Shown here in pieces: positions 11,464 to 62,201 of a DNA stretch of 64,000 bases; the stretch's first letter is position 1; each line of letters begins with the position of its first letter. Under the pieces are notes generated by a model. It was not told where the DNA came from, searched no databases, and worked only from the letters and a program-made list of their open reading frames with translations. The position numbers and the translations under genes are program-made. The DNA is from Bacteroidia bacterium (GTDB taxonomy: Bacteria > Bacteroidota > Bacteroidia > Bacteroidales > VadinHA17), in NCBI GenBank assembly GCA_026391215.1, contig JAPLDX010000056.1, forward strand, positions 44,827 through 108,826. The letters are read 5' to 3'.

Positions 11464-12523
11464 TTATCTGTTCAGGACATGCCTGAGGCTGTACATAGAT
11501 CCAACAATTGTTACAGGAGTTCCCTCCCTCACATACTTGAATATACTATCCATTTCCCTGTCTTTCAGAGCGATGCATCCCGCAGTCCAGTCTGCGCCTC
11601 TTCCGCCGTTTCCATGAATTTCTATCATATCCCCTATCCTGGCTGAGCGTGATATACTGCCGCTTTCTATGGCATGATTGAATTCCAATGTATCCTCCTC
11701 ATTCGGGTAGTTAATCAGAAGCGCCTTATAATACTTGGTACTGTCACTTTCAAATTTCCTGGATATTTTATACATGCCCTCAGGCCGCAGTGAATTCGGT
11801 AATTTTTGTTCCGTCAAGATAAACAAAAAATTTATGTGAAAATTTGTCGACGATGATCGAGTAATCATGACTTTCTCTCGATAAGGCTAAAGTGCTGTCA
11901 ATCCATATTTTCCATTGAGGATATGATCTGAAATAACTCTTCAGGTTTTCATCAGCATATTGATAAGAAGATCCCAGGAGAGACTTTGAATCTGATATCT
12001 TGCTCTCTGCCTGGAGGTAATTGCCTTCCCTATAAGCTAATTCCGCTTCCCTCATCAGCATTTTTCCCAATGATATCTTATTACGTACTTCGATTGTCAG
12101 GGGATATGTCGGGAAGATCTTATTGATCTTTGCCATAAGGTCGTTAATGTCTTTCAACTCCTGTTCCAGGCGGACCCTGAGGCTTGAAGTATTGTATACT
12201 GAGATTTCAGAAGCTTCTTTTGCTTTATTTGAGGATAATTCAGCCAGGGCGAGTATTTTGCTGTAATTTCTTTTATAGATGAACTTTGTGTTTTCGCGCC
12301 TCCAGTTGGCCATTGCAGAATCGTAACAATTCATGGTTTCTTTGAACAGTTCCTCTGAGTAGATATCAGCTTTGTTTTTGCGGGCCAGGGAAATAGCTTC
12401 ACGTGCCTCCTTCATTTCTTTTGCGGGAGGAGGAGGAACAGGATAAAAGAAAAGGAAAACCATCAGGGTTATGAAAACTGCAATTGCAGAAATTATAAGA
12501 ATATGCCACCAGGGTTTTCCCAT
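11464..12523 (-). pseudogene. L,D-transpeptidase-family gene split by a 1-nt frame change (two overlapping ORFs, 11780-12523 and 11464-11868)
   Basis: The upstream ORF ends ...FVYLDGTKITEFTAA* at 11780. The catalytic part (RPEGMYKI ... IHGNGGRGADWTAGCIAL) continues in the +1 frame. The frames overlap at 11783-11868. Confidence 0.5.
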
Positions 12524-27400: not shown

Positions 27401-30400
27401 CAGGTCGCCATCATTATCATAGTCGCCCCATGCGACAGAACTCCTGTACACTCCTGTTAAGCCAACACTGTCATCCGTGAAAACACCTGCATCGTTCCGG
27501 TATATTTTTGAGCTGTAACCTGATCCGTTATCACCAGCCAATAAAATATCCAGATCACCGTCGCTGTCATAATCACCCCAGGCTACAGAGCCTCTATTAA
27601 TTCCCGTTAAACTTATCCCTGAGGGTTCAACAAAGGCAGGAACACTTATTTTCACTTCATTGGTCGTATATTCAATTGCACTTTTTGTAGCCACACATAC
27701 TACATAGTAATTCCCAAATACTGAAAAATTAGGCGTGTAGGTTGTCCCTGTGGCCCCTGCAATTGTCTGATTATAGGGACCGCCGCTCACAGTGGAATAT
27801 TTCCATTGTCTCGATGCAGGGGTGCTTGATTCAGTCACTGTAAGTACAGAGCCGTTTTGATTTAGCTTCAATATCTGAGCCGTATCAGGAGAAATGGAAT
27901 TCGAGAAGACAACAGTAAATGAGCCCTCAGTTGCAAAAGCCGATCCTGCAAAATTATGGTCTATTGCCTGTACACTCCAGTAATATGTTCCTGCTGCAAG
28001 CTTTTTTGGCATCCAATTATTTCCCTGGATCAATCCTCTCTGGACAATTCTCCTGTATCCACCTGGCAGGGCTGCCATGGGAGATTTTTTGTTAATTGTT
28101 CCGGCAGCAGCGCCAATATAAAGATTATACGAAAGACCATCCTGGGGTGTTTGTATATCTGTTGTTTTGCTCCACGAAAGTGTTACTCCGCTTCCTGTAA
28201 CATTTGCAGCCAGGCCTGAAGGCTTAACAGGAGCGGTATTCAGTACAGAATTATTGTTTTTGTATATTTTTGATACAGGCCCTTCACCTGAGGTACCTGT
28301 TAGTAAAATATCCAGATCACCATCGTTATCGTAATCACCCCAGGCCGATGAACCTGTCTGAACCTTTTCTAAATACGAAAAAACCTCTGTAAAGACGTTA
28401 TTGTTGTTCTGTATGATTTTAGATATTAATCCGTCGTAGGTAGTACCGGTCACTAAAAAATCCAGGTCGCCGTCGTTGTCATAATCGCCCCAGTCTACTG
28501 AACCCTGATAAAAGTTAGGTAAGGAGTAATCTATTGAAGAAAAAGCCCCGGCATTATTGTTGAATATTCTCAAATTATAAACAGTTGACCATAAAACATC
28601 GAGATCACCGTCATTATCATAATCGCCCCAGGCAACTGAAGCGGCTGGATTGTTGTAGAATCCCGGATTAATACCGGTAAAAGAACCATTATCGTTCCTG
28701 TATATTCGTGAAAATCCATTAATTGCATCATTGTAACCAGCAAGCAAGATGTCAAGGTCGCCGTCATTATCATAATCGCCCCAGTCAACTGAACTTTCCC
28801 TTGCCCCGATCAGGCCGGCATTAATATCTGTAAAAATCCCCGCATCATTCCTGTATATTTGTGAGATACATAAGTTACTGGCATTATAGCCGGTCAACAG
28901 AATATCGAGGTCGCCGTCATTATCATAATCAGCCCATGCAACTGAGCCAATGTGCACTCCAGGTAAATAAACACTGATATTCTTAGTGAATGTACTATCG
29001 CCATTATTGTCCCAGATTTCAGAAACCGGACCAGCGTCTGAATAACCAGTTAATAAAATATCCAGGTACCCGTCATTATTATAATCACCCCATGCCACTG
29101 AACTTTCATCGACCCCTGGCATTAAAGTTCCTGCCAGCTCTGTAAATTTATTGCTGCCACCGTTCTTATAGATCTTGGAAACCCTGATGCCGGAACCTGT
29201 CCTGCCCGTCAATAAAATATCCTGATCCCCATCATTATCATAATCACCCCAGGCAACAGAACTATTATAGACACCTGTTAAGCTTATCCCTGTCTGTTCA
29301 ATAAAGTTTGTAACAATTATTTTTACCTGGTTGCTGGTATATGCCGTTCCACCAAATATCGATTCACATACAATATAATAAATGCCATCGGCCGGGAAGG
29401 ATGTAATACATGTGGTTCCGGTAGCACCTGCAATCGCCTGAGTGTATGGGCCACCGCTTACGGTTGAGTATTTCCACTGGCGCGAAGTGGGAGTGCTTGA
29501 TTCCGTCACAGTTAATGTCGCGCAGTTTTGATTTTTTAATATAGCCTGTTCACCAGTCGGAATAATTGAATTTGAAAAGGGAATCGTAAAAGTGCCTTCA
29601 GCAGCAAAAGCTGAACCGGCAAAACCGTAGTCGATAGCCTGTACACTCCAGTAGTACGTGGCTGCCGGCAATTTCTTCACGAAATATGTATTGGACTGAA
29701 TATTTCCCCTCCGGACTATTTTTCTGTATCCGCCCGGTACAACTGCCATTGGTGAACATTTGTTCACTGTACCAGTAGCGGTGCCTATATAGATGTTGTA
29801 CGAGAGACCGTCCTGCGATGTTTGAGTATCAGTTGATTTGCTCCATGTAAGAGTTGCTTTGCCACCCGTTACACTTGAACCAAGCCCTGAAGGTGATGCA
29901 GGAAAGGTATTTGCAACAGCACTGTTATTTTTATAGATCTTCGAATAACCACTGCCGGTCAGTAAAATATCAAGGTCGTTATCCTTGTCATAATCCCCCC
30001 ATGCAACGGAGCTGTAAGAAACACCGGTTAATCCTGCGCTGATATCGGTAAAAGTACCTGCATTGTTGTTGTAAACCTTAGAAATATCAGCAGAACCGGA
30101 ATATCCTGTAAGCAGAATATCCAGGTCGCCGTCGTTATCATAATCACCCCAGGCAGCAGAGCTATATCGTACTCCGGTTAAACCTGCATTAATATCCGTG
30201 AATGTGCCGCTGCTGTTATTGTATATCCTTGCATTATATCCGGAATCCCAGTTATACCCTGCCAACAGAATATCGAGATCGCCATCTTCATCATAATCGC
30301 CCCATGAAGCAGAACTGTAGGTTACACCCTCTAATCCGGCATTAATATCAGTGAAAATGCCACTGTCATTACGGTATATTTTTGCAATCGGGCCATCCAT

Positions 30401-31018
30401 AAAAGAATAACCAGTCAGAAGAATATCCAGGTCACCGTCATTATCATAATCACCCCATGCTACTGAACTGTTATCAACTCCTGTTAAACCGGCCTCAATA
30501 TCAGTAAAGATACCATTGTCGTTGCGATAAACCATTGATATATAAGTACCCTGAAGGCTGCCAGTAAGCAATATATCAAGGTCCCCATCATTGTCGTAAT
30601 CTCCCCATGCAACTGAACCGTAATTGACTCCAGCTAACCCCGCATTTATATCGGCAAACGTTCCGGCATCGTTCCTGTAAATTTTCGAAGTGTTGCTTCC
30701 TGTCAGTAAAATATCCAGGTCGCCGTCATTATCATAATCACCCCATGCTGCAGAACTGAAAGAAACTCCTGTTAAGCCGGGAGCTGCTATAGCGCTGAAG
30801 GCTCCTGCTGTATTCTGGTAGATTAAAGCATTCCCGCTTCCCGTCAAAAGAATATCAGGATCCCCATCATTGTCATAATCGCCCCAGGCCACTGAGCCTC
30901 TTGAGATCCCTGTTAATATAATTGGCTGCTCGGTAAATGCCTGGCTGAAAAGATCAGGCGCCGCAAGGCAAAACAATAATAATCCCAGACAGGTGAATCG
31001 GAGTAAAGGAGTTCTCAT
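18449..31018 (-). CDS. Giant (4189 aa) T9SS-secreted FG-GAP/VCBS-repeat protein
   Basis: Signal peptide. I count 48 copies of the W-G-D-Y-D-N-D-G-D-L-D-I-L-L-T-G calcium-binding blade motif in seven modules (7,7,7,7,6,7,7). After each of the first six modules come an FN3-like domain (LSWSKSTD...YYWSVQAID) and an Ig-like domain (SRQWKYSTVSGGPY). Three further FN3 domains and a type-A CTD (YVYPNPASKNITL) close the protein. Confidence 0.9.
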   Translation of the reverse strand: MRTPLLRFTCLGLLLFCLAAPDLFSQAFTEQPIILTGISRGSVAWGDYDNDGDPDILLTGSGNALIYQNTAGAFSAIAAPGLTGVSFSSAAWGDYDNDGDLDILLTGSNTSKIYRNDAGTFADINAGLAGVNYGSVAWGDYDNDGDLDILLTGSLQGTYISMVYRNDNGIFTDIEAGLTGVDNSSVAWGDYDNDGDLDILLTGYSFMDGPIAKIYRNDSGIFTDINAGLEGVTYSSASWGDYDEDGDLDILLAGYNWDSGYNARIYNNSSGTFTDINAGLTGVRYSSAAWGDYDNDGDLDILLTGYSGSADISKVYNNNAGTFTDISAGLTGVSYSSVAWGDYDKDNDLDILLTGSGYSKIYKNNSAVANTFPASPSGLGSSVTGGKATLTWSKSTDTQTSQDGLSYNIYIGTATGTVNKCSPMAVVPGGYRKIVRRGNIQSNTYFVKKLPAATYYWSVQAIDYGFAGSAFAAEGTFTIPFSNSIIPTGEQAILKNQNCATLTVTESSTPTSRQWKYSTVSGGPYTQAIAGATGTTCITSFPADGIYYIVCESIFGGTAYTSNQVKIIVTNFIEQTGISLTGVYNSSVAWGDYDNDGDQDILLTGRTGSGIRVSKIYKNGGSNKFTELAGTLMPGVDESSVAWGDYNNDGYLDILLTGYSDAGPVSEIWDNNGDSTFTKNISVYLPGVHIGSVAWADYDNDGDLDILLTGYNASNLCISQIYRNDAGIFTDINAGLIGARESSVDWGDYDNDGDLDILLAGYNDAINGFSRIYRNDNGSFTGINPGFYNNPAASVAWGDYDNDGDLDVLWSTVYNLRIFNNNAGAFSSIDYSLPNFYQGSVDWGDYDNDGDLDFLVTGTTYDGLISKIIQNNNNVFTEVFSYLEKVQTGSSAWGDYDNDGDLDILLTGTSGEGPVSKIYKNNNSVLNTAPVKPSGLAANVTGSGVTLSWSKTTDIQTPQDGLSYNLYIGAAAGTINKKSPMAALPGGYRRIVQRGLIQGNNWMPKKLAAGTYYWSVQAIDHNFAGSAFATEGSFTVVFSNSISPDTAQILKLNQNGSVLTVTESSTPASRQWKYSTVSGGPYNQTIAGATGTTYTPNFSVFGNYYVVCVATKSAIEYTTNEVKISVPAFVEPSGISLTGINRGSVAWGDYDSDGDLDILLAGDNGSGYSSKIYRNDAGVFTDDSVGLTGVYRSSVAWGDYDNDGDLDILLSGHSGSNYVSIIYRNDAGVFTDISAGLTGVNGSSVAWGDYDNDGDLDILLTGEYYDTEWHIISKVYRNDAGVFTDINAGLTGVSYGSVTWGDYDNDGDLDILLVGGWNSKIYRNDNGIFTDINAGLEGTYGGSAAWGDYDSDGDLDILLTGSGVSKIYNNNAGVFTGIDAGLAEINYGSATWGDYDNDGDLDILLTGAGYSKIFRNDSGVFTDIEEPIEGASNSSAAWGDYDNDGDLDIILTGSGSSGYISKIYKNNSLTANVVPAVPSNLQASLGSNKVTLSWTKSTDSKTAQDGLTYNVYIGTTAGSVNKKSPMAALPGGYRRIVQRGTQNNSWAIKKLTAATYYWSVQAIDNNFSGSAFATEGSFTIAFTNSIAPEADQVLGINQNGALLTVTESSTPTSRQWKYSTVSGGPYDQSISGATATTYTPNFSAFGTYYVVCVSSKNAIDYATNEVKISVSAFAEQKGIALTGVDNCSVVWGDYDYDGDLDILLTGYSNSGYISRIYRNDLGVYNDINAGLTGVEWSAAAWGDYDNDGDLDLLLTGGYYSSGLNYISKIYRNDAGTFTDINAGLTGVYEGSVAWGDYDNDGDLDILLTGYDGSNSVSKIYRNDAGVFTDINAGLSGVSGSSVVWGDYDNDSDLDILLTGSWNSIIYRNDNGIFSDINAGLQGISGGSAAWGDYDSDGDLDILITGGGISKIYKNNAGVFTEINADLPGIYNGSSVWGDLDNDGDLDIILNGWDDILGSYIAKIYRNDTDTTIDITNALTGYSLAAVYSSSVALGDYDNDGDLDVLLAGYLSSSGRVSKVYKNNTSPANTVPTAPTNLQASLGANKVTLSWNKSTDTKTTQNALTYNVYIGTTAGSVNKKSPMAALPGGYRRIVQRGTQTNSWTIKKLTAGTYYWSVQALDNNFAGSTFATEGSFTVAFSNSIAPVADQVLGVNQNGTVLTVTESSTPTSRQWKYSTISGGPYDQTISGATATTYTPNFAAFGTYYVVCASIKNAIEYASNEVKISVPAFAEQTGITLPGLDDCSVVWGDYDSDGDLDILLTGYSNSDFLSRVYRNDLGVYNDINAGLIGVVESSAAWGDYDNDGDLDILLTGYYWNSGDYYISKIYRNDAGTFTDINAGLTGVSSSSVALGDYDNDGDLDILLAGYNGSISVSKIYRNDAGIFTDITADLTGISDGSAAWGDYDSDGDLDILITGSGISKVYNNNAGIFTEINAGLTGVSESTAVWGDLDNDGDLDIILNGYNNTLSSYITKFYRNATDTIIDITNTLTGYSLAAVYNSSVALGDYDNDGDLDVLLAGYLSSYGRVSKVYKNNTSPANTVPAAPTNLQASLGANKVTLSWNKSTDTKTAQNGLTYNLYIGTTAGTVNKKSPMAALPDGYRRIVRSGATQTNSWTINRLSAGTYYWSVQAIDNNFAGSAFATEGTFTVAFSNSIAPVADQVLGVNQNGTVLTVTESSTPTSRQWKYSTVSGGPYDQSISGATGTTYTPNFAAFGTYYVVCASIKNAIEYASNEVKISVPAFAEQTGIALTGVDLGSVAYADYDNDGDLDILLTGNSGSGAISKIYRNDLGVYNDISAGLTGVYRSSAAWGDYDNDGDLDILLTGYVGSNGISRIYRNDAGTFTDIAAGLTGIWDGSAVWGDYDNDGDLDILLTGYDGSTDISRIYRNDAGIFTDINGGLAGTGGGSVAAWGDYDNDGDLDILLVGSWNSLVYRNDNGIFTNINAGLTGVTNCSAVWGDYDSDGDLDILLTGGGISKIYRNNAGVFTDMNAGLIGIYESTAAWGDLDNDGDLDIILNGWDDNLDSYITKFYRNDGDTTIDITNTLTGYSLATVYNSSVTLGDYDNDGDLDVLLTGYLISTGSVTKVYKNNTSAANTVPAAPTNLQASLGANKVTLSWNKSTDTKTAQSGLTYNVYIGTIAGSVNRKSPMAALPGGYRRIVQRGAAQANSWTIKSLTAGTYYWSVQAIDNNFAGSAFAAEGSFIVSYSNSISPVTDQSLLINQNGTVLTVTESSTPTSRQWKYSTVSGGPYDQTITGATGTTYTPGFSSYGTYYVVCVSTKNAIEYATNEVKISVPAFTEQTGLNLTGIYRGSVAWGDYDSDGDLDILLTGDDGSNYISKIYRNDAGVFTDIIAGLKGVYRSSVAWGDYDNDGDLDILLTGEYYNSGWFYVSNIYQNDAGVFTDKNAGLAGVYDGSVALGDYDNDGDLDILLTGYDGSNSVSKIYRNDAGVFTDITAGLTGVNASSVAWGDYDNDGDLDILLTGNSDSRIYRNDTGVFTNINAGLAGVSNSSVAWGDYDNDGDLDILLTGSGYSKIYKNDAGIFTDINAGLTGINYGSVTWGDYDNDGDLDILLTGSGYSKIYKNDAGVFTDINAGLTGINYGSVTWGDYDNDGDLDILLAGSYTSKVYKNNSIVANTVPSAPTNLLASALSVNKVSFTWNKATDSKTPQNTLTYNIRIGTAAGGSSIVGPMASVSTGFRRIPAIGNAELRSNGYTITNLAPGKYYWSVQAIDQAYAGGAWAAEGQFNLLAAPVASAATNIAETSFTSHWSASTGATGYKLDIATDSTFTTIVTGYNSKDVGNITSANVSGLTSGSIYYYRLRAYNAGGTSIVYSNVIKTITLGIPAAPVATDATSVVQTSFTANWNSSPNANSYELDVSTSNTFSSFLPGFSNIYVGNVTSYSVTGLTANTVYYYRVRASNSYGASLNSGTITVTTLMNPPATPAGLTASSCNNLVTLSWTAITDANFLRYIIFGGTSASPTTKIDSTSTISSVAKTISGLTPGVTYYFRVTAVNTVGMASSYSSEVSAKVKKGVVPKIKAKWNNVLICYNVGDSLTSWQWFKGGIAISGATKQYYVTAKSPGSYYVWATDKNGCQNPSAAINITGTKSAYVYPNPASKNITLSISGDDYGRTLIRFYNSTGVKVIELQTEKLDFKLDSEIALPGLQSGTYTIEVLVNNELFSTSKIVVIK
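20100..30950. repeat. In-frame coding super-repeats (1533-1668 nt) and 135-138-nt blade repeats inside the giant gene
   Basis: The marker TGTTCTGCAA recurs at 22791, 24324 and 25992 (periods 1533 and 1668 nt). Long stretches such as 22791-23100 and 24324-24640 are nearly identical. Confidence 0.85.
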
Positions 31019-52074: not shown

Positions 52075-53799
52075 TTATTCCAGCCTCTCAAAAAGCTGTT
52101 TAGCTGTTTCAACAGGGATCTCTTTTTTACCGAGCCATGCTCCAACTTTTGCATCATTGTAACCGTTTCTTATTAAAAGATCGGCATACTCTTCGGCACT
52201 TTCAAAGGTGATGAAAGTACCCATCAGGTAGATCATAGTATTATCAGGGAGTGTTACAATTTCAAGGCCCCTTGTTCCTGCCAGCTTGTTTATGCCTTCA
52301 AGGACATCATCTTTCAAGGGTTTTAAGGATCTTACCACTTCTACCCTGAATGTCAGTGTCGGCGGAAGAGTGTCAGCAGAAGCAATCCCGGCTTCCTTTA
52401 TCCGGATCAATGTTTTCTTCCCCCACTCCTTTTCAAGAGCTGCAGCTTTTTCTGCTGATACTGTTTTGCCTCCATAGAGCGCCGCAACAAAAGCATCCTT
52501 GAATCCTTTTTTCCTGACTGTTACCAGTGCCTTATTTGCATCAGCCAGTTTCCTGAACATTCCTGCATAATATACTTTCAGATCTTTACCTGCTACTTTA
52601 AATCCATAAACCGGGGAGATGCCTTTAAAATATGAAGAGATCACAGGATTACGGAATACTGCCACCTGTATCCGGTATATAAGTCCGGGAGGCACTTCAG
52701 GATCCATTGAAATCTTTTCATCAGAGACGCCGGCTTTAACTTCAAAAACTGAATAAACCTCAACTGGCCTGGGCCCGGCGGGAGTTTTAGCAATAGTCTT
52801 AGCAACTGAGTCTGCAAGAGGCTGAATCTCAGTTGGTTTGATAATGACTTCCTGGTTAATAGTGTCCCTGGTGATTATTAAAGTATCCTTTACTGTATCA
52901 GCCTTTTTATCAACTATCAGAGTATCAGAGAGCTTACCTTTATTGGTTGTTGAATCTGTTGCTGCAGGGACAGTTATAAGTCCTGCAGTGAAAGGTTTTT
53001 TGTTCATTGCTGCCTGTGCTTCACTGTATTTACTGTCAGCCTGTTCCTGGAAAGAAGCTGCAAGACTTTCAGTTTCAGTAATTGCTGTCTTCACTTTTGT
53101 ACGTTCTGCATAACTTCCTTTTTCCAGTCCTTTTTTCTGATCTTCAGCAATTTTGTAGAGTGAATCGGCTTTATACTGCAGTTCAAGAGCATCAGACAAC
53201 AACTTCTCATAATCTATTGAGACAGTATCACTTACAAGGGGCGCCTTCACACGATCTTCATCAGTAGGAATGATCTTCTTTTCCGCCTGCTGTGCTACCT
53301 GCACTGCCAGGCGGCCTTCTTTTCTTTCACATTGCTGGATGAATTCAGGAATACCCAGATCTCTGGAAGCCTTTTTACCATTGAGGTCACTAAAGGAACT
53401 ATAAGATATTATCGCTTCGTTATACTTACCTGACAAGTGCTGTGCCCTCCCCAGCCAGAACATTGCATCTGCAGGGATTGTCCTGACAACGGCAGAACCC
53501 TGTTGTGCCTGTTTAAGGAGTGTCACAGCTTTTTCCGGTTCACGGTTCAGCTTAATAAGGCATACACCTGAGTAATACTTATAAATAGGATCTTTCGGGT
53601 ATGCTATCAGAAGCTCACTGAAATCGCTGGAGGCCTTTTCATAATCACCATTTGAAAATGCCTCGAGAGAAGATTGTCTCGAAGGCTTACCTGCTTCCTG
53701 TGAAAGGATATCTGCTGATGAAAATAGAAAAGCCAGAGTCATCAGTAAACAGATGATATGACATCGTGCAATAAGGCCGGATATTATACGTGAATCCAC
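52075..53799 (-). CDS. TPR-repeat / SPOR-domain envelope protein
   Basis: 574 aa. N-terminal hydrophobic anchor, TPR-like helices, and SPOR-like C-terminal domains (YRIQVAVFRNP..., FRVEVVRS...). Confidence 0.6.
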   Translation of the reverse strand: MDSRIISGLIARCHIICLLMTLAFLFSSADILSQEAGKPSRQSSLEAFSNGDYEKASSDFSELLIAYPKDPIYKYYSGVCLIKLNREPEKAVTLLKQAQQGSAVVRTIPADAMFWLGRAQHLSGKYNEAIISYSSFSDLNGKKASRDLGIPEFIQQCERKEGRLAVQVAQQAEKKIIPTDEDRVKAPLVSDTVSIDYEKLLSDALELQYKADSLYKIAEDQKKGLEKGSYAERTKVKTAITETESLAASFQEQADSKYSEAQAAMNKKPFTAGLITVPAATDSTTNKGKLSDTLIVDKKADTVKDTLIITRDTINQEVIIKPTEIQPLADSVAKTIAKTPAGPRPVEVYSVFEVKAGVSDEKISMDPEVPPGLIYRIQVAVFRNPVISSYFKGISPVYGFKVAGKDLKVYYAGMFRKLADANKALVTVRKKGFKDAFVAALYGGKTVSAEKAAALEKEWGKKTLIRIKEAGIASADTLPPTLTFRVEVVRSLKPLKDDVLEGINKLAGTRGLEIVTLPDNTMIYLMGTFITFESAEEYADLLIRNGYNDAKVGAWLGKKEIPVETAKQLFERLE

Positions 53800-53946
53800 A
53801 AATAGTTAATTTTCAGATTATTATGAGATAGCTTAAAATATTGTTACAACTGTTTTTGTTAATAATTAAAAATCTGTTTTTATTCTGAAAACAATTCAAA
53901 CTTCGTAAATTTATTTATAATCTAAAAGAGGAAAAACCTTATCTTT

Positions 53947-55035
53947 TTAATTTATCAGAACACTATTCACCATTTTACTGTGGCATTTCAATACCCGACT
54001 TTTTTCAATATCTCTAAGGCATATGCCATTGCCTAAGCAATATTTATAATTTTTACAGCTTGCGCATTGATTTGTTTTTGTCCAGTCTCTATTTCTAAAC
54101 GGCTGATATTTAGTAGTCCACACGTCTATCAAACTCTCTTGAAGTATGTTTCCTTGAATCAATTTTCTATTGATATTTGGACAAGCAGAGATAGAACCGT
54201 CATGTAATATTGATGCAATATTTATTCCTGCCCTGCAAAAATAGAATTCATCTCTCACCACTCCTTCATAGTTCTCTAAAAATCCGTCACAACCATAGTT
54301 TATGTTTATTCCCTTTCGTTTTTTCGCATTCTTAATAAACTCTAATGTTTGGATTAATTCTTTTCCATTAATATTCAATTCTTTATGTTTGCTTGCTCTC
54401 CCAATCGGGTCAATTGTAAATAACCTCCAATTCTTCACATTTAAGCCAATAAGCAAGTCATAAATTTTATCGAGTTCACCAATATTTCTTAATGTAACGC
54501 AGGTTGCAACATCAAATGTAATATTCTCATATTTTGAAACTAAACTTATCGCCTTAACGGTTCTATCGAAACTCAGCGCATTATTTCTAAGCCAATTGTG
54601 ACTATCCTTTAGTCCGTCTAAGCTAATTGTTAGTGAAGTTAATCCACTTTCGATTAAATTAGTTAATCGTTCATTATCCAAAAGAAAACCATTTGTTACT
54701 AATCCCCACTTATAGCCTAATTTCGAAATTTCTGAGCCGAAAATCTCAATGTCTTTGCGAATCAATGGTTCTCCACCTGTAATTACAACATGAGGTAGTT
54801 TATTACCAACCAGCTTTTTAATTCTAGCTAATTCAATTACTATTAGCTGATAAGGTAAATCATTTGAGTTTTCAATACCGCAATTACTTCCACAATGCAA
54901 ACAACTGAAATTACATTTCAGGGTGCACTCCCAGAACAAATATTTTAAATCATGTAGTTGAGTTTGAGATTTTCTAAATGACTGGAATAGCCTTAAACTC
55001 AGCTTTTTTTGCAAATTCATTTTATTTTGCACCAT
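53947..55035 (-). CDS. Radical SAM / SPASM-domain enzyme
   Basis: CNFSCLHC (CxxxCxxC) near aa 41-48, ITGGEP, and a C-terminal Cys-rich SPASM region (CRAGINIASILHDGSISACPN ... CASCKNYKYCLGNGIC). Confidence 0.85.
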   Translation of the reverse strand: MVQNKMNLQKKLSLRLFQSFRKSQTQLHDLKYLFWECTLKCNFSCLHCGSNCGIENSNDLPYQLIVIELARIKKLVGNKLPHVVITGGEPLIRKDIEIFGSEISKLGYKWGLVTNGFLLDNERLTNLIESGLTSLTISLDGLKDSHNWLRNNALSFDRTVKAISLVSKYENITFDVATCVTLRNIGELDKIYDLLIGLNVKNWRLFTIDPIGRASKHKELNINGKELIQTLEFIKNAKKRKGININYGCDGFLENYEGVVRDEFYFCRAGINIASILHDGSISACPNINRKLIQGNILQESLIDVWTTKYQPFRNRDWTKTNQCASCKNYKYCLGNGICLRDIEKSRVLKCHSKMVNSVLIN

Positions 55036-55433
55036 TACTTCGGATTTAAGACAAAATCGCAGTTCTCTAACTCGTTCGGAAGTAATTCCACTGTTTTAGT
55101 CGAATTCTGAAATTCACCATTATCAGCACCGTCAATATCTTTTGCTTCAACTGTGTATTGTTGTGGTTCTAAGTACTCAACAACATAGTTACCAGTATTA
55201 TCTGTTTTAATGGTTCTTGAATTTTCTTTTATTGAAATTTCGATATCCTTAATTGCCTCGCCCGAACCTGAAGATGTTACTTTACCTTTTATAGTTCCTG
55301 TAATATCTGCAATATCACCATATTTGCAACACATGGTCAATAAAGAAATGCTACCAAATCCAAATGCAAAACCTGCATTTTTTAAAATTTTCCGCAGCAG
55401 ATAGTCTTTTACTCTAATTTTTTGGTTCTTCAT
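55035..55433 (-). CDS. Radical-SAM-associated putative lipoprotein (transthyretin/CarboxypepD_reg-like beta-sandwich)
   Basis: 132 aa. Long basic N-region, then SISLLTMCC (lipobox followed by a second Cys), then GTIKGKVTSSGSGEAIKDIEISI...TDNTGNYVV. Its stop overlaps the rSAM start (TAATG). Confidence 0.6.
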   Translation of the reverse strand: MKNQKIRVKDYLLRKILKNAGFAFGFGSISLLTMCCKYGDIADITGTIKGKVTSSGSGEAIKDIEISIKENSRTIKTDNTGNYVVEYLEPQQYTVEAKDIDGADNGEFQNSTKTVELLPNELENCDFVLNPK

Positions 55434-55536
55434 AAATCATTCAATTTTTAATGATACACAAGGTACTTGTATACATAATTTGGGGGTAAAGAGTTACTTT
55501 CTTGCATCAATATTTGTTCGAATATAATCATACTTT

Positions 55537-56655
55537 CTAATCTATCTTTTTAATTGTATAGAACTCAGAAAAGTTAATGCTATATCCTAAATCCCTTTGA
55601 GGAAAGAATATCAATCCCATATGCAAAGATTCAATCAAATCTGATTTACTCCAACTTTCTCCACCATCTTTAGTTTCATAGCAAATGCTGCCTTTAAATG
55701 TTGGAAAATCACCGCCCTCATAAACCGCAACATTTTCAATATTAAATCCTTCATTTTCATCATAAAAATGCAATGTTCCAAAATTTGTAAATGGAAAATC
55801 AGTTTTAATCCAGTTTAAACCACCGTCAACCGTTTTGTACACAGCCGTTATGCCATCAATAAATCCAATATTCTCGCTGTAGAAGTATATGTGATTAACA
55901 TCATGGTATGCTTCAATGGGTGTGCTTATTGTTTCCCAATTATAACCATAATCTAAACTTTTAAATATTTTTTGGTTTTCGCCGGCAATAAAAATTATAT
56001 TATCGACATAAAATAATTTATCATCGGAAGGTCTGATTGGTAAATAAATCAAATTCCAGTGTATTCCCCCATCTGAAGTAAGCGCGATATGTTCATTCTT
56101 TGAATACGGATAATTTGGAGTTTTAATAAGTGCAACACCATTTAAAGTATTAAAGAATTTTAATGATAATATTCGTGAATAATCAGGGAAAAATGTCTTT
56201 GTCCAAGTTTCTCCGCCATCGGTAGTTTTCAATAATACAGAGCCTTTGTCACAATCTGCATCCAAACAACCCCCCATTGCCTGACTTGATGCAAATCCGA
56301 CATTTTCATCAAGAAAAAATACGGAATGCAAGTGTAATGTAGTTCCAGAATTCAGTTCATGCCATGTTTTCCCTGAGTCTACTGTTTTAAGTATATCTCC
56401 ATTATATCCAACGACAAAACCAACACTTGAATTTAAGAAAAATATGTCCCGTGGATTTATGTCAAAACCGTAAATCGATTTTGAAATCACCAAATCATTT
56501 ACAATAATGGTATCCCCATTAATAGAAACATAAACAGACTTGTCTTCATGGTTAATAGGTTCTTTAGTACAATCGAATAATATTGTTGCAGATAAAAGAA
56601 TCGCAATGTTTAATTTAAGAATAGTAAATACTATATCAAAAGTTGGTCGATGCAT
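55537..56655 (-). CDS. BNR/Asp-box beta-propeller lipoprotein (Ycf48/sortilin-like)
   Basis: Lipobox ILFDC. Six Asp-box-like motifs: VDSGKTW, TDGGETW, SDGGIHW, LDYGYNW, VDGGLNW, KDGGESW. Confidence 0.7.
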   Translation of the reverse strand: MHRPTFDIVFTILKLNIAILLSATILFDCTKEPINHEDKSVYVSINGDTIIVNDLVISKSIYGFDINPRDIFFLNSSVGFVVGYNGDILKTVDSGKTWHELNSGTTLHLHSVFFLDENVGFASSQAMGGCLDADCDKGSVLLKTTDGGETWTKTFFPDYSRILSLKFFNTLNGVALIKTPNYPYSKNEHIALTSDGGIHWNLIYLPIRPSDDKLFYVDNIIFIAGENQKIFKSLDYGYNWETISTPIEAYHDVNHIYFYSENIGFIDGITAVYKTVDGGLNWIKTDFPFTNFGTLHFYDENEGFNIENVAVYEGGDFPTFKGSICYETKDGGESWSKSDLIESLHMGLIFFPQRDLGYSINFSEFYTIKKID

Positions 56656-56671
56656 TTTTTTGTATTTTCAT

Positions 56672-57124
56672 TTATTTCATTTGTTTTCCAAGATAAGTTC
56701 CATCTGGCTGCTTTACTTTTATGGTGAAGTTTTCGGGTAAAGAATCTCTATTACATAGAATTTTACGATTCAGATACACCATAATATCTGGACAAATAGT
56801 GGCATTGACCTGAACATTTTTCCACGCTTCAATGATTACATCCCGATTTTGTCTGGAAATATTAAAGCGACTGAAACTTGAGCATCCATTGGAACTGATT
56901 GTTCCCCAAAAATTAATCTCGAACAATCCATTATATAGTAGTGTTTCGGGTGTTTCAGGGTAGCTAATTGTAAGACTATCAACTTTTATCAGGTATTCTT
57001 TATAGATTGATTCTTTGATTGATTCTTTTGTACAGGATGTAAAGGATGTAATTAGTCCTGAGACAAATAATAGCTTAGCAGTAAATAGAAAATTATACTT
57101 ACAAAAATTACATTTTGGTTTCAT
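56672..57124 (-). CDS. Small lipoprotein, unknown function
   Basis: 150 aa, signal plus lipobox (ITSFTSC-TKES). Lies 16 nt upstream of the propeller gene. Confidence 0.5.
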   Translation of the reverse strand: MKPKCNFCKYNFLFTAKLLFVSGLITSFTSCTKESIKESIYKEYLIKVDSLTISYPETPETLLYNGLFEINFWGTISSNGCSSFSRFNISRQNRDVIIEAWKNVQVNATICPDIMVYLNRKILCNRDSLPENFTIKVKQPDGTYLGKQMK

Positions 57125-57249
57125 ATTCTTTTGATTGTAGCTGATGTTTATTTACTTATCATATTTACATTTTCGAGGAACTTTTTGTTTTTTGCATTGA
57201 ATCCTTTGCCAAAACATAATCAATAATCAGGAGTATGATAATAGATTAA

Positions 57250-57630
57250 TTAATATTTCAATTTGCCACTACTTAGAGAAACTACTAAAGTGTCGTTGTC
57301 TTTATAAGCCATAACTTTAGTGTTTACTTCAAATTCTCCGCTTGGGACAGAGGTTACCCTAAAAGAAATTACTAAATCTTTATTAAAATTCTTTTTTGAA
57401 TCCAATTCAACATTTGCATCAAACATCACACCGTCTCCATAAGTTCTGACAGTCACTTTATTGCCATTTGTAGAACCCTCTAATTTCAGGTTTACCATTC
57501 CTCCAGCATTACCTAATCTAGTGAGATACCATTGAGAATTTGTAATGTTAAGTGTAGCAGGACTATTATTTTCTTTTTCAGAACAAGAAGCAAATACAAT
57601 AATTGCCAAAAGAAATACTATATTTTTCAA
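57250..57630 (-). CDS. Small lipoprotein, unknown function
   Basis: 126 aa, signal plus lipobox (IVFASC-SEKEN), beta-rich sequence. Confidence 0.55.
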   Translation of the reverse strand: MKNIVFLLAIIVFASCSEKENNSPATLNITNSQWYLTRLGNAGGMVNLKLEGSTNGNKVTVRTYGDGVMFDANVELDSKKNFNKDLVISFRVTSVPSGEFEVNTKVMAYKDNDTLVVSLSSGKLKY

Positions 57631-57700
57631 AATTTATGTATTATTTAATAATACAATTATCATAATCGAGAATCCAATTTTTTTCATTGTATTACCAACG

Positions 57701-58768
57701 TTATCTTTTCTTTAATGTATATATCTTATAATTACTTATACAGTAAGCAAAATCATTTGTTACAAAATTAATTGTACCAAATCCAAATCTTTTTAATAAA
57801 TCAGACTTTGTCCAGTTTCTCCCGCCATCTGCTGTAGTATAAACGTATGTTCCAATAAAAGAAGGGAAATCGCCACCTATATATGCGGAAGTATCAACAA
57901 TCCAAATTCCGTATTTATAATTACAAAAATGGAAATCCTCAAAAGGCTGTGATGGAGTTGAAAAGAACTTGAATGGAAATTTAATTTCTTGCCATGTATT
58001 TCCACCGTCAGTAGTTTTGAACTTTTTATCTACACAATCCACAAAACCAGTTTTTTCATCAATAAAATAGAATCCACGAATGAAATTTGCTGGTGTTTTT
58101 GGTATATTTATTGTACTCCAAGAAAAACCCTTATAAGTACTTTTATAAATTCTTTGATTCGTTCCTGTTGCATAACTTAATCCCCCCAAATAAAACAACC
58201 CTTTAAATGATTGGTTTAACTCCAGGTTATTATCAGCCCACCAACTTTCTCCACCATCGGAAGTTCTCATAAGATGTGCACCTGAATTATCATAATTTAT
58301 TGCAGTGGCATATAGAGAATCAAAAAATTTCATCGAATACAATCTATATGCAGTAGTGTAATGTCGTTTTGTCCAATGCTTACCACCATCAACTGTTTTA
58401 TACAAAGTGCCATAGTAATCGCCATTAAGGACATTCCCAATTCCATATATAAATCCAGTAGAATCATTTATAAATGATAAGGTAGTTGTCGTTACTCCTA
58501 ATGAATCTTTTTCAATATCTGATTGTTCCCATGACCTTGCATAATCTGTAGTTTTTAGCAGATAACCATTTGAGCCAATAATATATCCGGTTTTTGAATC
58601 AATAAAATCAACATCTTCAGGATATAACCATCTATAATTAAAATCAATTGAGTCTAATTGCCATCCTTTAATTATATCATTGGGAAAATCGTATTCATCC
58701 TTTATACAATTTGAAAGAGTAGTAGTTATGAAAGTAATAATTAACAAGAAATAGATTCTGTATTTCAT
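57701..58768 (-). CDS. BNR/Asp-box beta-propeller lipoprotein, paralog of 55537-56655
   Basis: I place the start at MKYRIYFLLIITFITTTLSNC (ATG 58768), which overlaps the upstream stop as TAATG. Motifs: TDYARSW, VDGGKHW, SDGGESW, TDGGNTW, ADGGRNW. Confidence 0.7.
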   Translation of the reverse strand: MKYRIYFLLIITFITTTLSNCIKDEYDFPNDIIKGWQLDSIDFNYRWLYPEDVDFIDSKTGYIIGSNGYLLKTTDYARSWEQSDIEKDSLGVTTTTLSFINDSTGFIYGIGNVLNGDYYGTLYKTVDGGKHWTKRHYTTAYRLYSMKFFDSLYATAINYDNSGAHLMRTSDGGESWWADNNLELNQSFKGLFYLGGLSYATGTNQRIYKSTYKGFSWSTINIPKTPANFIRGFYFIDEKTGFVDCVDKKFKTTDGGNTWQEIKFPFKFFSTPSQPFEDFHFCNYKYGIWIVDTSAYIGGDFPSFIGTYVYTTADGGRNWTKSDLLKRFGFGTINFVTNDFAYCISNYKIYTLKKR

Positions 58769-59187
58769 TATTTGATTTTCCTGAATGTAAGGCATGATTT
58801 TTTAGTATCAATGTATTTGCAGAACTTGCCAATATTAATTGTCAAATTTGGTTCGTCAAACTTGAAATGGTAAGTTCCTCCTTCCCTTGAACTCGATAAC
58901 CCACTTATTACCGAAATACTATCTTCAGTAATTTTGTACCAATAAGCATCACTACCTATCTTTGGTAGCCAATAGCCATTGGTCATCGCAAAACCTCTGG
59001 ATAGACAAAAGTAGCCTGATATACTGTCTGAATGAAAACTAATTGTATCAGTTTTAGTACTTGTTTCGACCCATGTGCCCGTTAGTCCCTTCGGAAGTGT
59101 GCCTGGGTCTGGGAAATCATCTTTCTTTTCACAGTTTGTTAGAAAGCAGACGAAGATAAGGAGAACAATGAATTTTACGTGTTCCAT
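58768..59187 (-). CDS. Small lipoprotein, unknown function
   Basis: I place the start at MEHVKFIVLLIFVCFLTNC-EKKDD (ATG 59187), giving 139 aa. Confidence 0.5.
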   Translation of the reverse strand: MEHVKFIVLLIFVCFLTNCEKKDDFPDPGTLPKGLTGTWVETSTKTDTISFHSDSISGYFCLSRGFAMTNGYWLPKIGSDAYWYKITEDSISVISGLSSSREGGTYHFKFDEPNLTINIGKFCKYIDTKKSCLTFRKIK

Positions 59188-59218
59188 TTGTTTGCTGCTT
59201 AAGGTGTAATAAAACTTA

Positions 59219-60055
59219 TTATTGGTAATATTCATATCTGCAACAATACCATTCTCCATACTTGGTCGGATGATATCCTATGTATTCAATAACATTCCCA
59301 TCTTTATACGTTGTTTTATCGGAAATAAAATCTCCATACGGACCGTCATAGTATGATTCAACAATTACTTTATCATCTGATTCAGAATAAGTAAACGTTA
59401 TTTCAACTAAAATTGACCAATTTCGGTCATATTCAATAGTCGTTATAATGTTTGAACCTTCATAAGTATAAATTGTATAAATACCTTCAGGATTTTCAAT
59501 CTTTTTTATTTTGTTTTTATTTGAATCATATTCATAAATAATGCTCCACTCTGTACTATTTTCGAAACTATAATCATATTCAGACATTAAAAGATTATTC
59601 GCAAAAGAATATATAATACTATCTGTCAATTCATTTTTGATATATCTTTTTTCGACTATTTTATTCCCCACATAACTATATTTATATATATAGATTAAAC
59701 TAAAATCAGATTCAGTCTGGTCAGAATAATTTTGCCCTTCCATTGCATAAAATTTCTTATTTAATAAAACTCCTTTATCAGAGTATTCATATGTATATGA
59801 AGCATAAACAGGATTAGGATAGTTCGAAAGTAATTTCCTCTTTAAATTCCAGTCTTCATCATATGAATAAGAAATAAAACTATATGGTATAGTATCAGAA
59901 GAAGATGAATAATTGTACTGGGTCTTTATTTTACCAATACTGTGTACATTATATTCGTCCTCCGGAATAATGTTGTTGTTCTCAGGAAGAAGGTTGTCTT
60001 TCTCACAGGAATAAAAAATAAGAGAAAAGATAAATATCAATGCTATCTTTCTCAC
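59219..60055 (-). CDS. Tyr/Glu/Ser-rich repeat lipoprotein (YD-like beta-hairpin repeats)
   Basis: 278 aa. Lipobox LIFYSC-EKDN. Recurrent Y-x-Y-(D/E)-x-x-x-N/K short repeats (YSYDEDWNL, YTYEYSDKG, YEYDSNKNK). Confidence 0.55.
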   Translation of the reverse strand: MRKIALIFIFSLIFYSCEKDNLLPENNNIIPEDEYNVHSIGKIKTQYNYSSSSDTIPYSFISYSYDEDWNLKRKLLSNYPNPVYASYTYEYSDKGVLLNKKFYAMEGQNYSDQTESDFSLIYIYKYSYVGNKIVEKRYIKNELTDSIIYSFANNLLMSEYDYSFENSTEWSIIYEYDSNKNKIKKIENPEGIYTIYTYEGSNIITTIEYDRNWSILVEITFTYSESDDKVIVESYYDGPYGDFISDKTTYKDGNVIEYIGYHPTKYGEWYCCRYEYYQ

Positions 60056-60718
60056 GATATTAGCTTTAGGTCATAAATATCACTGCAAAAATTAAGCCAG
60101 TTTTTACTTCTAAAATTCGAACATTATAGCCTGAAAGTCAATAAATACCGCTTTCTCTTTTCTTAATTTGATATTTGAAGACATCCAAATAAGAAATGAA
60201 CCATTATTTGTATTTTCTTATTAATAGTTTTACCTTAACGCGTCTGAAAATACAAAACCAATGCTGTTTATAACATGATGATTTTTAATAAATTTAATTT
60301 TATAACAATTAGAGTTTGTCATTATACTTGAAAGTACATATGAATATACCCGCTTACTGCTTGGTTTTATTTCCAATTGGCGCATATACTGACTAATATA
60401 ATAATCAATGTTGAAAGTGCTGCTAATTAGTCTGCTGAAAACACCGCATCACGTGGTATATTATAACTTTCACCCTTACCCGTATTAGTTACATAGTAGC
60501 GTAAATAAGTTTTCTTATCTTTGCCAGGAGCAACGAATTTTAAAGTAAATTTCTTAATTTTCATAACGATAATATTACGATGTTTTTATATACAGATTCA
60601 GAAAACAGTAAAAAATCATATAACATTAATTATTAACAACATAACAAACATGCAAGATTAATTTCAAGTAGCAAAAGAACTTCGCAAATTTACCTATAAT
60701 AACAAAATTAGAAACCCA

Positions 60719-61183
60719 ATGGCACAATTAAAGGAAGGCATGACTGCACCTCCTTTTGAGGGTATGGATCAGAATGGAATAGTGGTGAAATCAAGTGATT
60801 TTAGAGGAAAGAAGATTGTGCTTTACTTCTATCCCAAGGACAGTACGCCAGGCTGTACGGCCGAAGCTTGCAATCTCCGCGACAATTACAATTCTCTACT
60901 GAAGAAGGGATTTGCAGTGATCGGAATAAGTATGGATAGTGAAAAGTCACATAAGAATTTTGCTGCGAAATATTCCCTTCCCTTTCCACTGATTGCAGAT
61001 ACAACAAAAAAGATCCTCAATGATTATGGTGTCTGGAAGGAGAAAAGCATGTACGGAAAAACTTTTTTAGGTATAGCCAGGACAACTTTCATAATCGATG
61101 AGAAAGGTATCATTGAGAAAGTAATCTCAAAAGTAGAGACTAAAACCCATTCAGAACAGATATTCGGATTATATCAAAAATAA
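60719..61183 (+). CDS. bcp: Thiol peroxidase / peroxiredoxin Bcp
   Basis: 154 aa. [15 protein letters not shown] peroxidatic-Cys motif. Confidence 0.85.
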
Positions 61184-61193
61184 AACCTACTAT

Positions 61194-62201
61194 ATGAGCA
61201 AAGAAAGAAAAGAGATCAATAAAGAGAAGCTTAAAGCGCTCGAAGTCACCCTGGGTAAAATTGAAAAGGATTTTGGGAAGGGTACAATAATGAAGCTTGG
61301 CGATCATGCCATTGAGAATATACAGGTTATCTCCACCGGTTCTATCGGGCTTGATGCAGCCCTTGGCATCGGAGGTTTTCCGCGCGGACGTGTTATTGAG
61401 ATCTACGGACCTGAGGCTTCAGGAAAGACGACACTCGCTATTCATGCAATAGCCGAAGCTCAGAAGAACGGCGGTATTGCGGCAATAATCGATGCTGAAC
61501 ATACTTTCGACCGTAATTATGCTGAAAAGCTTGGCGTTGACGTGGAGAACCTTCTCATCTCCCAGCCCGATAACGGGGAACAAGCCCTTGAGATAACTGA
61601 TAACCTCATCAGATCAGGAGCTCTCGATATTGTGGTTATCGATTCTGTGGCAGCCCTCACACCCAAGGCTGAAATTGAAGGTGAAATGGGTGATTCAAAA
61701 ATGGGGCTGCAGGCAAGGCTGATGTCTCAGGCTCTCAGGAAGCTCACTGCAAACATCAGCAAAACAAATACTTCCTGCGTATTCATAAATCAGCTCAGGG
61801 AAAAGATTGGAATAGTGTTTGGAAACCCTGAAACCACTACCGGAGGAAATGCGCTTAAATTTTATGCATCTGTGAGGGTGGATATTCGGCGTACAAGCCA
61901 GTTAAAAGAGGGCGAAGAGATCATTGGTAACCGCACGAGAGTCAAAATTGTGAAGAACAAGCTTGCCCCTCCTTTCAGAAAAGCTGATTTTGACATCCTC
62001 TATGGAGAAGGGATTTCACAGCTCGGTGAAATTGTTGACCTCGGCACTGACTTAAATATTATTAAAAAGAGCGGCTCCTGGTTCAGCTATGGTGAAACAA
62101 GGATTGGACAGGGACGCGACGCAGTCAAACAGATACTGAAAGATAATCCTGAATTATATGATGAGCTTAAGGCCAAAGTACAGGAAGCTCTTAAGAAATA
62201 A
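61194..62201 (+). CDS. recA: Recombinase RecA
   Basis: 335 aa. [11 protein letters not shown] Walker [33 protein letters not shown]. Confidence 0.95.

Follow-up and report, generated by a model that had tools for sequence, protein, structure and literature searches.

A low-GC islet of lipoprotein and radical SAM genes, bracketed by hybrid att-like direct repeats, inserted between bcp-recA and a TPR protein gene in an uncultured Bacteroidia bacterium

The window analyzed here is a 64,000-nt stretch of contig JAPLDX010000056.1 (positions 44,827 to 108,826, forward strand) from the Bacteroidia bacterium assembly GCA_026391215.1 (Bacteroidales; VadinHA17). Its intergenic region between the bcp-recA gene pair and a divergently oriented gene for a tetratricopeptide repeat (TPR), SPOR-like protein, henceforth the SPOR gene, is occupied by an islet of 6,756 nt (53922-60677) with a GC content of 0.309, which has no counterpart in eight relatives. 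This islet was gained by insertion and represents a real horizontal acquisition. It contains eight co-oriented minus-strand genes, one for a radical SAM/SPASM enzyme and seven whose products carry signal peptides of the lipoprotein type, and is bracketed by two copies of a 23-nt direct repeat, each of which is a hybrid of an ancestral and a non-ancestral half. An earlier note on this DNA had proposed a horizontally acquired cassette with a duplicated target or att-like site; the present analysis supports that proposal, 'att-like' being a reading of the structure of the site.

Using the TPR protein encoded next to the islet as a probe (574 aa; gene at 52075-53799, minus strand; orthologues 41-61% identical), two genome loci and seven metagenome loci were retrieved, designated here by L numbers. 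At eight of them (L004, L005, L013, L014, L015, L017, L018 and L019) recA and bcp, or a remnant of bcp, lie directly upstream of and divergent from the SPOR gene, no islet genes are present and the 23-mer occurs exactly once. L016 was uninformative, as its sequence does not extend far enough upstream and its context differs. Most relatives contain the string ...ATTTTGTTATTATGGGTAAATTTACGAAGTTTGAATTG... once in the conserved intergenic region. In BLASTN comparisons, window positions 60759-60678 and 53921-53853 align to adjacent stretches of the empty-site loci, and on L004, L005, L013, L014 and L019 the two junction alignments overlap by exactly 23 nt. Deletion of the islet together with one repeat copy leaves a bcp-SPOR intergenic region of 140 nt, the approximate length that the earlier note had given for the divergent region after removal of the block; the corresponding region of L005 measures 138 nt.

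In a neighbour-joining tree of the SPOR proteins, the window is sister to (L004,(L013,L014)), with L015, L016, L005 and (L017,L018) outside. Because the window is nested among empty-site lineages, gain is far more parsimonious than repeated loss; the comparison with related genomes suggested in the earlier note, a search for a single 23-mer at a site free of the islet, thus came out in favour of insertion. Contigs of the same species from three separately assembled Logan samples carry the islet and are 100% identical to the window through the right junction (bcp, repeat and islet up to the gene for a 150-aa lipoprotein). Exact-sequence look-ups of the radical SAM and SPOR proteins matched no record. 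In the sister clade of the window lineage, all that is left of bcp between recA and the conserved intergenic region is a stub of about 30 codons (L004:9600-9750; L013:3683-3831; L014:2356-2503), and a full bcp is kept in L005, L015, L017, L018, L019 and the window.

The composition of the islet is foreign to its surroundings. A drop in GC between about 53.8 and 60.7 kb, previously estimated from hand counts, is borne out by sliding-window computation, with 0.309 inside the islet versus 0.424 across the remaining window. In 500-nt windows, GC drops from 0.41-0.44 on the left to 0.27-0.35 inside and rises again to 0.40-0.49 on the right, with breaks at ∼53.6-53.9 kb on the left and ∼60.6-61.2 kb on the right, and all other 1-kb bins of the window have a GC of at least 0.36. 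Against the distribution of all outside windows, 3-kb windows inside the islet deviate strongly in GC (z = −8 to −10) as well as in strand-symmetric tetranucleotide distance (z = 7.5-8.7). Likewise, GC at third codon positions is 0.21-0.35 in the islet genes versus 0.36-0.44 in SPOR, bcp, recA and the next gene. Of the features by which genomic islets are recognized, deviant composition, an empty syntenic site and target-derived direct repeats are thus all present, and an integrase or other mobility gene and a tRNA target were not found. Cumulative GC skew falls over most of the window to a minimum at ∼60.5 kb, at the bcp/SPOR divergence, and then rises; such a course is what one would expect close to an origin of replication, though it may reflect no more than gene orientation.

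The SPOR-proximal repeat copy, AACTTCGTAAATTTATTTATAAT (53899-53921; ATTATAAATAAATTTACGAAGTT on the minus strand), and the bcp-proximal copy, AACTTCGCAAATTTACCTATAAT (60678-60700; ATTATAGGTAAATTTGCGAAGTT on the minus strand), are in direct orientation and identical at 20 of 23 positions, exactly as first reported, with a longest exact shared run of 7 nt. Allowing up to three mismatches, the 23-mer matches the two strands of the window at these two places only and is not found in any of 100 shuffles; between shuffled junction regions (300 shuffles) the best 23-mer match reached 19 positions and never 20. The possibility that the 23-mer is a common motif is therefore not borne out within the 64-kb window. 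A looser 12-mer core has four matches in the window versus 1.35 expected, which is no meaningful excess, and the exact string GTANNTTTGC gave no match in a literature search.

Comparison with L013 and L014 places each copy at the edge of host DNA. Over the 30-nt flank on the bcp side, the bcp-side copy matches these relatives at 25/30 positions and the SPOR-side copy at 9/30; over the 30-nt flank on the SPOR side the values are 10/30 and 29/30, respectively, and within the 23-nt core they are 21/23 and 20/23. Beyond the core, identity between the two window copies falls to 8/30 and 11/30, about the level of the unrelated flanks, so that the weaker similarity described earlier as continuing for about 17 nt beyond the repeat does not exceed chance.

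Read on the minus strand, the ancestral site in the majority of relatives is ATTATGGG-TAAATTT-ACGAAGTT, with left-arm variants in L019 (ATTATTGG), L017/L018 (ATTAGGGG) and L005 (ATTATGCG). The SPOR-side copy reads ATTATAAA-TAAATTT-ACGAAGTT and continues into ancestral DNA (TGAATTG...); it combines an element-derived half, ATTATAAA, towards the islet with the ancestral half ACGAAGTT leading into host DNA. The bcp-side copy reads ATTATAGG-TAAATTT-GCGAAGTT and continues into islet DNA (CTTTTGC...); here the ancestral half lies towards bcp and the element-derived half, GCGAAGTT, adjoins the islet. The three differences between the copies flank TAAATTT: at the left two (GG vs AA) the bcp-side copy has the ancestral state, and at the one on the right (G vs A) the SPOR-side copy does. 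Such a pattern is expected from a reciprocal exchange in or next to TAAATTT and corresponds to attL/attR geometry; since there are only three informative positions, with a chance probability of 1/8, we regard it as supportive and not as conclusive.

A block of ∼40 nt in the bcp-SPOR intergenic region (window 60678-60718 and 53799-53921; columns 45-85 of alignment A1) is nearly invariant among relatives, in contrast with SPOR proteins that are just 41-61% identical. The block includes a perfect 10-bp palindrome, GTAAATTTAC, which is broken in both window copies (GTAAATTTGC and ATAAATTTAC), and it could be an operator or a common divergent promoter for bcp-recA and SPOR.

We consider it probable, with considerable room for doubt, that the islet arose by att-type integration of a circular element, the recombinase of which either acted in trans or was later lost, and that the islet is equivalent to a cis-mobilizable element (CIME) because it encodes no recombinase itself. 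According to this model, a low-GC element of ∼6.8 kb would have integrated in the conserved ∼140-nt bcp-recA/SPOR intergenic region by one reciprocal crossover between a 23-bp site of the circularized element, ATTATAAA-TAAATTT-GCGAAGTT on the minus strand, and a near-identical chromosomal site, ATTATAGG-TAAATTT-ACGAAGTT, as rebuilt from the ancestral halves of the window copies. The predicted empty site would read ...GTTATTATAGGTAAATTTACGAAGTTTGAATTG..., and the predicted junction of the circle would run from the 3' end of the radical SAM gene through ATTATAAATAAATTTGCGAAGTT-CTTTTGCTAC... (also written ...CTCTTTTAGATTATAAATAAATTTGCGAAGTTCTTTTGCTACTTG...). Exchange in or beside the shared TAAATTT would then yield the two hybrid copies as equivalents of attL and attR on either side of the islet. 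This is the geometry that a tyrosine recombinase would produce.

Integration at this place would also have separated the SPOR coding region from its promoter, which the islet would thereby have captured. Upstream of the array, the minus strand contains only two boxes of the form TAnnTTTG, which we take to be the Bacteroidetes −7 promoter consensus: the perfect box TAATTTTG (60703-60710), in host DNA outside the right repeat and conserved in most relatives, and the box TAAATTTG (60685-60692), inside the right repeat and created by the copy-specific G. The SPOR-side copy has no upstream box. It is probable that TAATTTTG is the former SPOR promoter, now facing the islet. The islet sits immediately downstream of this box and points the same way as SPOR, so that the captured host promoter probably drives transcription of the array, with read-through into SPOR; no terminator-like hairpin was found between the stop codon of the radical SAM gene and the SPOR start 147 nt downstream. 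A scan for sigma-70 promoters and terminators, ill-suited to Bacteroidota, gave results at chance level.

Neither the genes nor the ends of the islet betray a machinery of mobility. Family searches with Pfam and TIGR models detected no integrase or transposase domain in the eight islet genes, in agreement with the absence asserted in the earlier note, and no integrase was found among ten other window open reading frames (ORFs) scanned. One of these ten, a 410-aa ORF next to a tRNA-Ser gene, encodes a nucleoside symporter. The AT-rich upstream end of the islet, ∼620 nt without a long ORF (60056-60677, on the 5' side of the minus-strand array), holds no recognizable integrase remnant, as stops break all six frames, and has no Rfam match and no homologue in any related locus. 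At the inner ends of the islet, terminal inverted repeats do not exceed shuffle level, and no structured inverted-repeat site occurs at its ends. No tRNA gene lies near the islet, the nearest, at 8.1 and 37.1 kb, being tens of kb away, and an Rfam search of 53.0-61.5 kb (E ≤ 1) returned two chance-level matches only.

A parent element was not found either. Viral contigs yielded no relative of the radical SAM enzyme and none with the predicted junction of the islet ends, plasmids yielded no DNA match to the islet, and across viral, plasmid, genome and metagenome searches there was neither a copy of the islet ends or the 620-nt leader nor a parent element; no remnant of a mobility gene was detected. 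The 15-nt core alone matches at least 120 viral contigs, which is uninformative, being by rough estimate at or below chance for 14 specified AT-rich bases, given the size of the collection.

Several observations weigh against att-type integration of a circle. No recombinase is encoded in the islet or in the ten other window ORFs, and neither a circular junction nor a same-species empty allele nor a second copy of the element ends was found. The site is atypical for an attP of the lambda or IntDOT type: the stop codon of the radical SAM gene is only 25 nt from the repeat, so there is no room for arm-type sites on that side, and neither of the 8-nt arms is an inverted repeat of the other. Chance alone would partition the three copy differences the right way with a probability of 1/8, and point mutation at a later time could account for the G of the right copy. 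Only one assembly, that of the window, contains the left junction. As for promoter capture, the −33 spacing is non-canonical, and the promoter assignment is made from the consensus only.

The alternative that survives best, though we think it unlikely, is a Campbell-type integration by host functions, in which circular or concatemeric foreign DNA carrying a promoter-like sequence of ∼23 nt recombined with the chromosome through this short homology. It predicts the same hybrid-repeat geometry and dispenses with the recombinase gene that was not found. Moreover, the segment in common is conserved and looks regulatory, and with its TAnnTTTG-like boxes it is of a class common to many Bacteroidota operons. 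An identity of 20/23 with a longest run of 7 nt is, however, far below what RecA-dependent recombination usually needs, and other copies of the cassette do not have a common promoter-like end sequence.

Somewhat less likely again is the insertion of linear DNA by illegitimate or microhomology recombination, or by a transposition-like event, with a 23-bp target duplication that later mutated. A direct target duplication is indeed present and, here too, the lack of a recombinase gene would need no explanation. Yet 23 bp is far longer than known transposase duplications, there is no transposase and no terminal inverted repeat beyond chance, and each of the three positions at which the copies differ lies on the side that a crossover predicts, which random later mutation of a duplication would not favour.

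A further reading is that the islet is an old resident locus, intrinsically low in GC and lost from relatives by deletion between the repeats; the distribution of its genes bears on it. Homologues of the radical SAM enzyme number in the thousands, those with names being mostly from Bacteroidota, and those at least 75% identical all lie in unrelated genomic neighbourhoods, so that cassettes of this kind are scattered. The closest are at L006-L008, with 86% protein identity and 84.5% DNA identity over 1,510 nt spanning the radical SAM gene and the adjacent gene for a TIGR04134 lipoprotein; here the pair has a GC of 0.326, the rest of the locus 0.377 and the flanks 0.41-0.45 per kb. At L009 (79% protein identity) the pair has a GC of 0.360 and the rest of the locus 0.436; the corresponding values are 0.303 and 0.334 at L020 (78%), and 0.290 and 0.343 at L010-L012 (75%). 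Over this clade the pair ranges from 0.29 to 0.36 and the host flanks from 0.33 to 0.44, and counted per kb the flanks of L006 and L009 reach 0.41-0.49. In all of these loci TIGR04134 lies directly upstream of the radical SAM gene, and the small hypothetical genes around the pair differ. In more distant loci the two values are close, with a pair GC of 0.425 versus 0.401 for the rest of the locus at L021 (71%) and of 0.392 versus 0.405 at L023 (70%).

Within the close clade (L006-L012 and L020) the pair is thus low in GC whatever the host, while the distant copies at L021 and L023 are host-like. The latter demonstrate that low GC is not intrinsic to the radical SAM pair. Low GC marks a lineage on the move into hosts of higher GC, the plausible source being low-GC Bacteroidota like those that carry L010 and L020. 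Within the islet, too, the genes form a mosaic: a homologue (69%) of its 163-aa lipoprotein lies downstream of the radical SAM gene in L006, where gene order differs, and the best homologue outside the species (82%) of its second beta-propeller protein sits with a 65% homologue of its 278-aa lipoprotein in L026, in another context.

The resident-locus explanation does account for a single remaining copy, since one would be left by deletion across the direct repeats; high AT content is frequent among accessory lipoprotein genes, and several genomes carry the cassette at low GC. It would require at least three to four independent and precise losses, the window being nested among empty sites, and it is at odds with the host-like GC of the radical SAM pair in the loci with extracytoplasmic function (ECF) sigma factors and TonB receptors (L021, L023), with the position of the nearest cassette relatives in unrelated loci of other genomes and with repeat copies that are hybrids of ancestral and non-ancestral halves. 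We consider it already largely refuted and very improbable. Least credible of all is a chimera in which metagenome assembly joined a low-GC fragment at a short repeat: the source is a metagenome-assembled genome and the left junction is seen in this window only, but three samples assembled separately agree exactly at the right junction, a k-mer assembler would not be misled by an exact match of at most 7 nt, and both composition breaks coincide with the repeat copies.

Other features of the homologous loci were as follows. The homologous cassette of L009 (ENA ERZ25039477 contig_27863) was searched for direct repeats on its two sides, and none was found. Many genes are split there (GH3 in four pieces, COesterase, an amino-acid permease and rhomboid), which suggests indel errors of a long-read assembly; fine-scale repeat analysis is therefore unreliable at that locus. 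The cassette of L006 extends past the end of its contig. In L010, a 107-nt direct repeat with 93% identity (9069-9175 and 12349-12455) brackets two lipoprotein genes, the radical SAM gene and two further genes; it includes a hairpin followed by a T-run (AAGCCTT...AAGGCTTTTTTT) and resembles a repeated terminator or intergenic element more than an att site. At L021 (7866-14718) and L023 (7016-15346), and also at L024 and L025, the TIGR04134/TIGR04133 pair lies inside a cluster of genes for an ECF sigma factor, a FecR anti-sigma factor, a TonB-dependent receptor and a DUF4249 protein. The receptor has STN, CarboxypepD_reg and Plug domains, and L023-L025 contain a second radical SAM paralogue, 48% identical. 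This context suggests that the radical SAM/lipoprotein system is linked to TonB-dependent trans-envelope signalling. A 67% homologue of the second beta-propeller protein is found at L027 (4775-6673, 12074-13006) in a low-GC patch of small hypothetical genes; close by are an IS110 transposase and what appears to be a diversity-generating retroelement, with bAvd, a reverse transcriptase and targets that have Lcl_C domains.

All eight large genes of the islet are on the minus strand, and the description of the block as co-oriented genes for exported proteins or a maturase proved apt, with one radical SAM/SPASM enzyme and seven predicted lipoproteins. The array begins, beyond the 620-nt leader, with the gene for the 278-aa predicted lipoprotein (59219-60055), its first large gene, followed by that for the 163-aa predicted lipoprotein (58768-59259); neither product has a family match. 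Next is the second of two Ycf48/BNR-like beta-propeller lipoproteins (57701-58795), 34% identical to the first; its likely true start gives 355 aa, as in public records, and record P0121 is 100% identical. Predicted lipoproteins of 126 aa (57250-57630; signal peptide ending in ...VFASC; no credible family match) and 150 aa (56672-57124; ...SFTSC; no family match) precede the first propeller, a predicted lipoprotein of 372 aa (55537-56655; ...LFDC) with matches to PSII_BNR, Sortilin-Vps10 and BNR in Pfam. The last two genes encode the TIGR04134 'radical SAM-associated putative lipoprotein' (55035-55433; 132 aa; CarboxypepD_reg fold) and the TIGR04133 radical SAM/SPASM enzyme (53947-55035; 362 aa; Radical_SAM and SPASM domains). 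The count of eight given in the earlier note holds for the large genes; a possible ninth is a 45-aa ORF (60427-60564), the one ORF of the ∼620-nt stretch, and the gene calls of the Logan contigs include it.

As read from the sequences, each of the seven non-enzyme products has an N-terminal hydrophobic signal ending in Cys, often followed by a K/E/D-rich segment. Read against what is generally known of Bacteroidota lipoproteins, these features point to export to the cell surface, and the six islet lipoproteins other than TIGR04134, including the two propellers, are probably surface-exposed. The TIGR04133 and TIGR04134 proteins score above their curated cut-offs (456.9 bits against 425 and 45.1 bits against 39.8, respectively), and their genes are adjacent, with the TIGR04134 stop codon overlapping the start codon of the radical SAM gene. 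The TIGR04134 lipoprotein has an unusually long conserved N-terminal stretch ahead of the lipobox. An alignment of nine sequences, from the window and eight homologues, reveals an invariant TMC(A/C)KYG around Cys35, DID..NGE, Cys125 and a C-terminal PK, all of them candidates for modification by the radical SAM enzyme, of which the lipoprotein is presumably the substrate. A literature search for TIGR04133/TIGR04134 returned a sole use of the number, for a type IX secretion system C-terminal domain, which is irrelevant here.

On the bcp side, the islet is flanked by bcp (60719-61183) and recA (61194-62201), both on the plus strand. The opposite flanking gene had been named SPOR/TPR; its TPR repeats are confirmed by Pfam, and no SPOR domain was matched at E ≤ 0.01. 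Elsewhere in the window, a single 4,189-aa ORF fills 12.6 kb (18449-31018, minus strand).

Among known systems, the layout of the islet is closest to that of CIMEs, decayed remnants of integrative elements that retain attL and attR, have lost the genes for integration and transfer, and are found beside streptococcal ICEs (integrative and conjugative elements) and IMEs (integrative and mobilizable elements) (PMC5704250). Like these, the islet is a discrete insert between att-like direct repeats that go back to one chromosomal site, and it consists of cargo genes only, no integrase, relaxase or transfer gene having been found. With their attL/attR geometry, its hybrid repeats are candidate sites for a recombinase. 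Unlike these, it bears no sign of descent from a larger ICE or IME and has no tandem partner element, its target is an intergenic promoter region and not the 3' end of a gene or a tRNA gene, and its host is a Bacteroidia metagenome-assembled genome, in which any mobility of the islet is putative.

The attDOT and attB sites of CTnDOT have the consensus TTTGCNNNNN, which is cut at the T/G step, and their overlap of 7 bp comprises GC and a 5-bp coupling sequence (PMC2034462, PMC2817482). The bcp-side copy reads GGTAAATTTGC-GAAGT, and ancestral homology ends one base past the TTTGCNNNNN motif; moreover, the B-type and D-type arms of the islet site resemble each other without full identity, a trait of CTnDOT too, with its match of 8 in 10 bp. 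On the other hand, TTTGC occurs in the bcp-side copy only, whereas the SPOR-side copy and all eight ancestral sites read TTTAC, a position at which IntDOT needs identity; the islet therefore falls outside this family of sites, and this alternative register serves as a lead only. It also lacks an IntDOT-like integrase, arm-type sites and genes of a conjugative transposon, and the data are explained no less well by TAAATTT as an identical overlap of 7 bp of the classical kind.

Classical genomic islands share with the islet a deviant composition, direct repeats, syntenic absence in relatives and accessory, surface-related cargo; the islet differs in having no tRNA target or integrase and in measuring only 6.8 kb. 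The cassettes of integrons resemble it as a co-oriented, apparently promoterless array just downstream of a resident promoter-like box from which it is probably expressed, but IntI, attI and attC are all absent and the islet is one multi-gene block, not a series of single-gene cassettes. An insertion sequence or transposon does not fit, there being no transposase, no terminal inverted repeats above shuffles and a 23-nt duplication. An integrative mobile element exploiting Xer (IMEX) appears unlikely, inspection by eye having revealed no convincing XerC-arm/6-bp/XerD-arm structure. As for a target at the chromosomal dif, the islet lies in a divergent promoter region that is conserved, where cumulative GC skew has a local minimum and not a maximum. 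The islet is thus outside the CTnDOT-type, insertion sequence/transposon and integron classes, and probably outside the Xer-dependent class, and has a CIME-like layout. As for the TIGR04133/TIGR04134 system, an NCBIfam hypothetical-equivalog pair, its two genes are adjacent and overlapping in the islet as in every homologous locus examined; in the islet the pair travels with six more lipoproteins, and elsewhere (L021, L023-L025) it belongs to the ECF-sigma/FecR/TonB-receptor/DUF4249 loci.

The islet thus represents a precisely delimited insertion in an uncultured member of the Bacteroidia, with a pre-insertion site that could be rebuilt to the base from eight relatives. Islets of this kind are common and current understanding is not overturned; the value of the case lies in a well-controlled example and the leads that it offers. 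If att-like hybrid repeats are found without a recombinase, then either trans-acting recombinases of this phylum move small cargo-only modules or what lasts of elements after their decay is modules of this sort. The TIGR04133/TIGR04134 pair is exchanged horizontally together with variable sets of lipoproteins and elsewhere forms part of ECF-sigma/TonB-receptor loci, which points to an accessory role of this system at the cell surface. More speculatively, and on the strength of one well-resolved case, the islet may belong to a class of integrase-less, promoterless lipoprotein/radical SAM cassettes in Bacteroidia, moved by a trans-acting tyrosine recombinase with a core that overlaps the −7 box TAnnTTTG, as compared with the TTTGC core of CTnDOT; we give this wider idea little credence at present. 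If true, each insertion of such a cassette would capture a host promoter, and the class would be a functional analogue of integron cassettes and CIMEs for the surface-protein repertoires of these bacteria.

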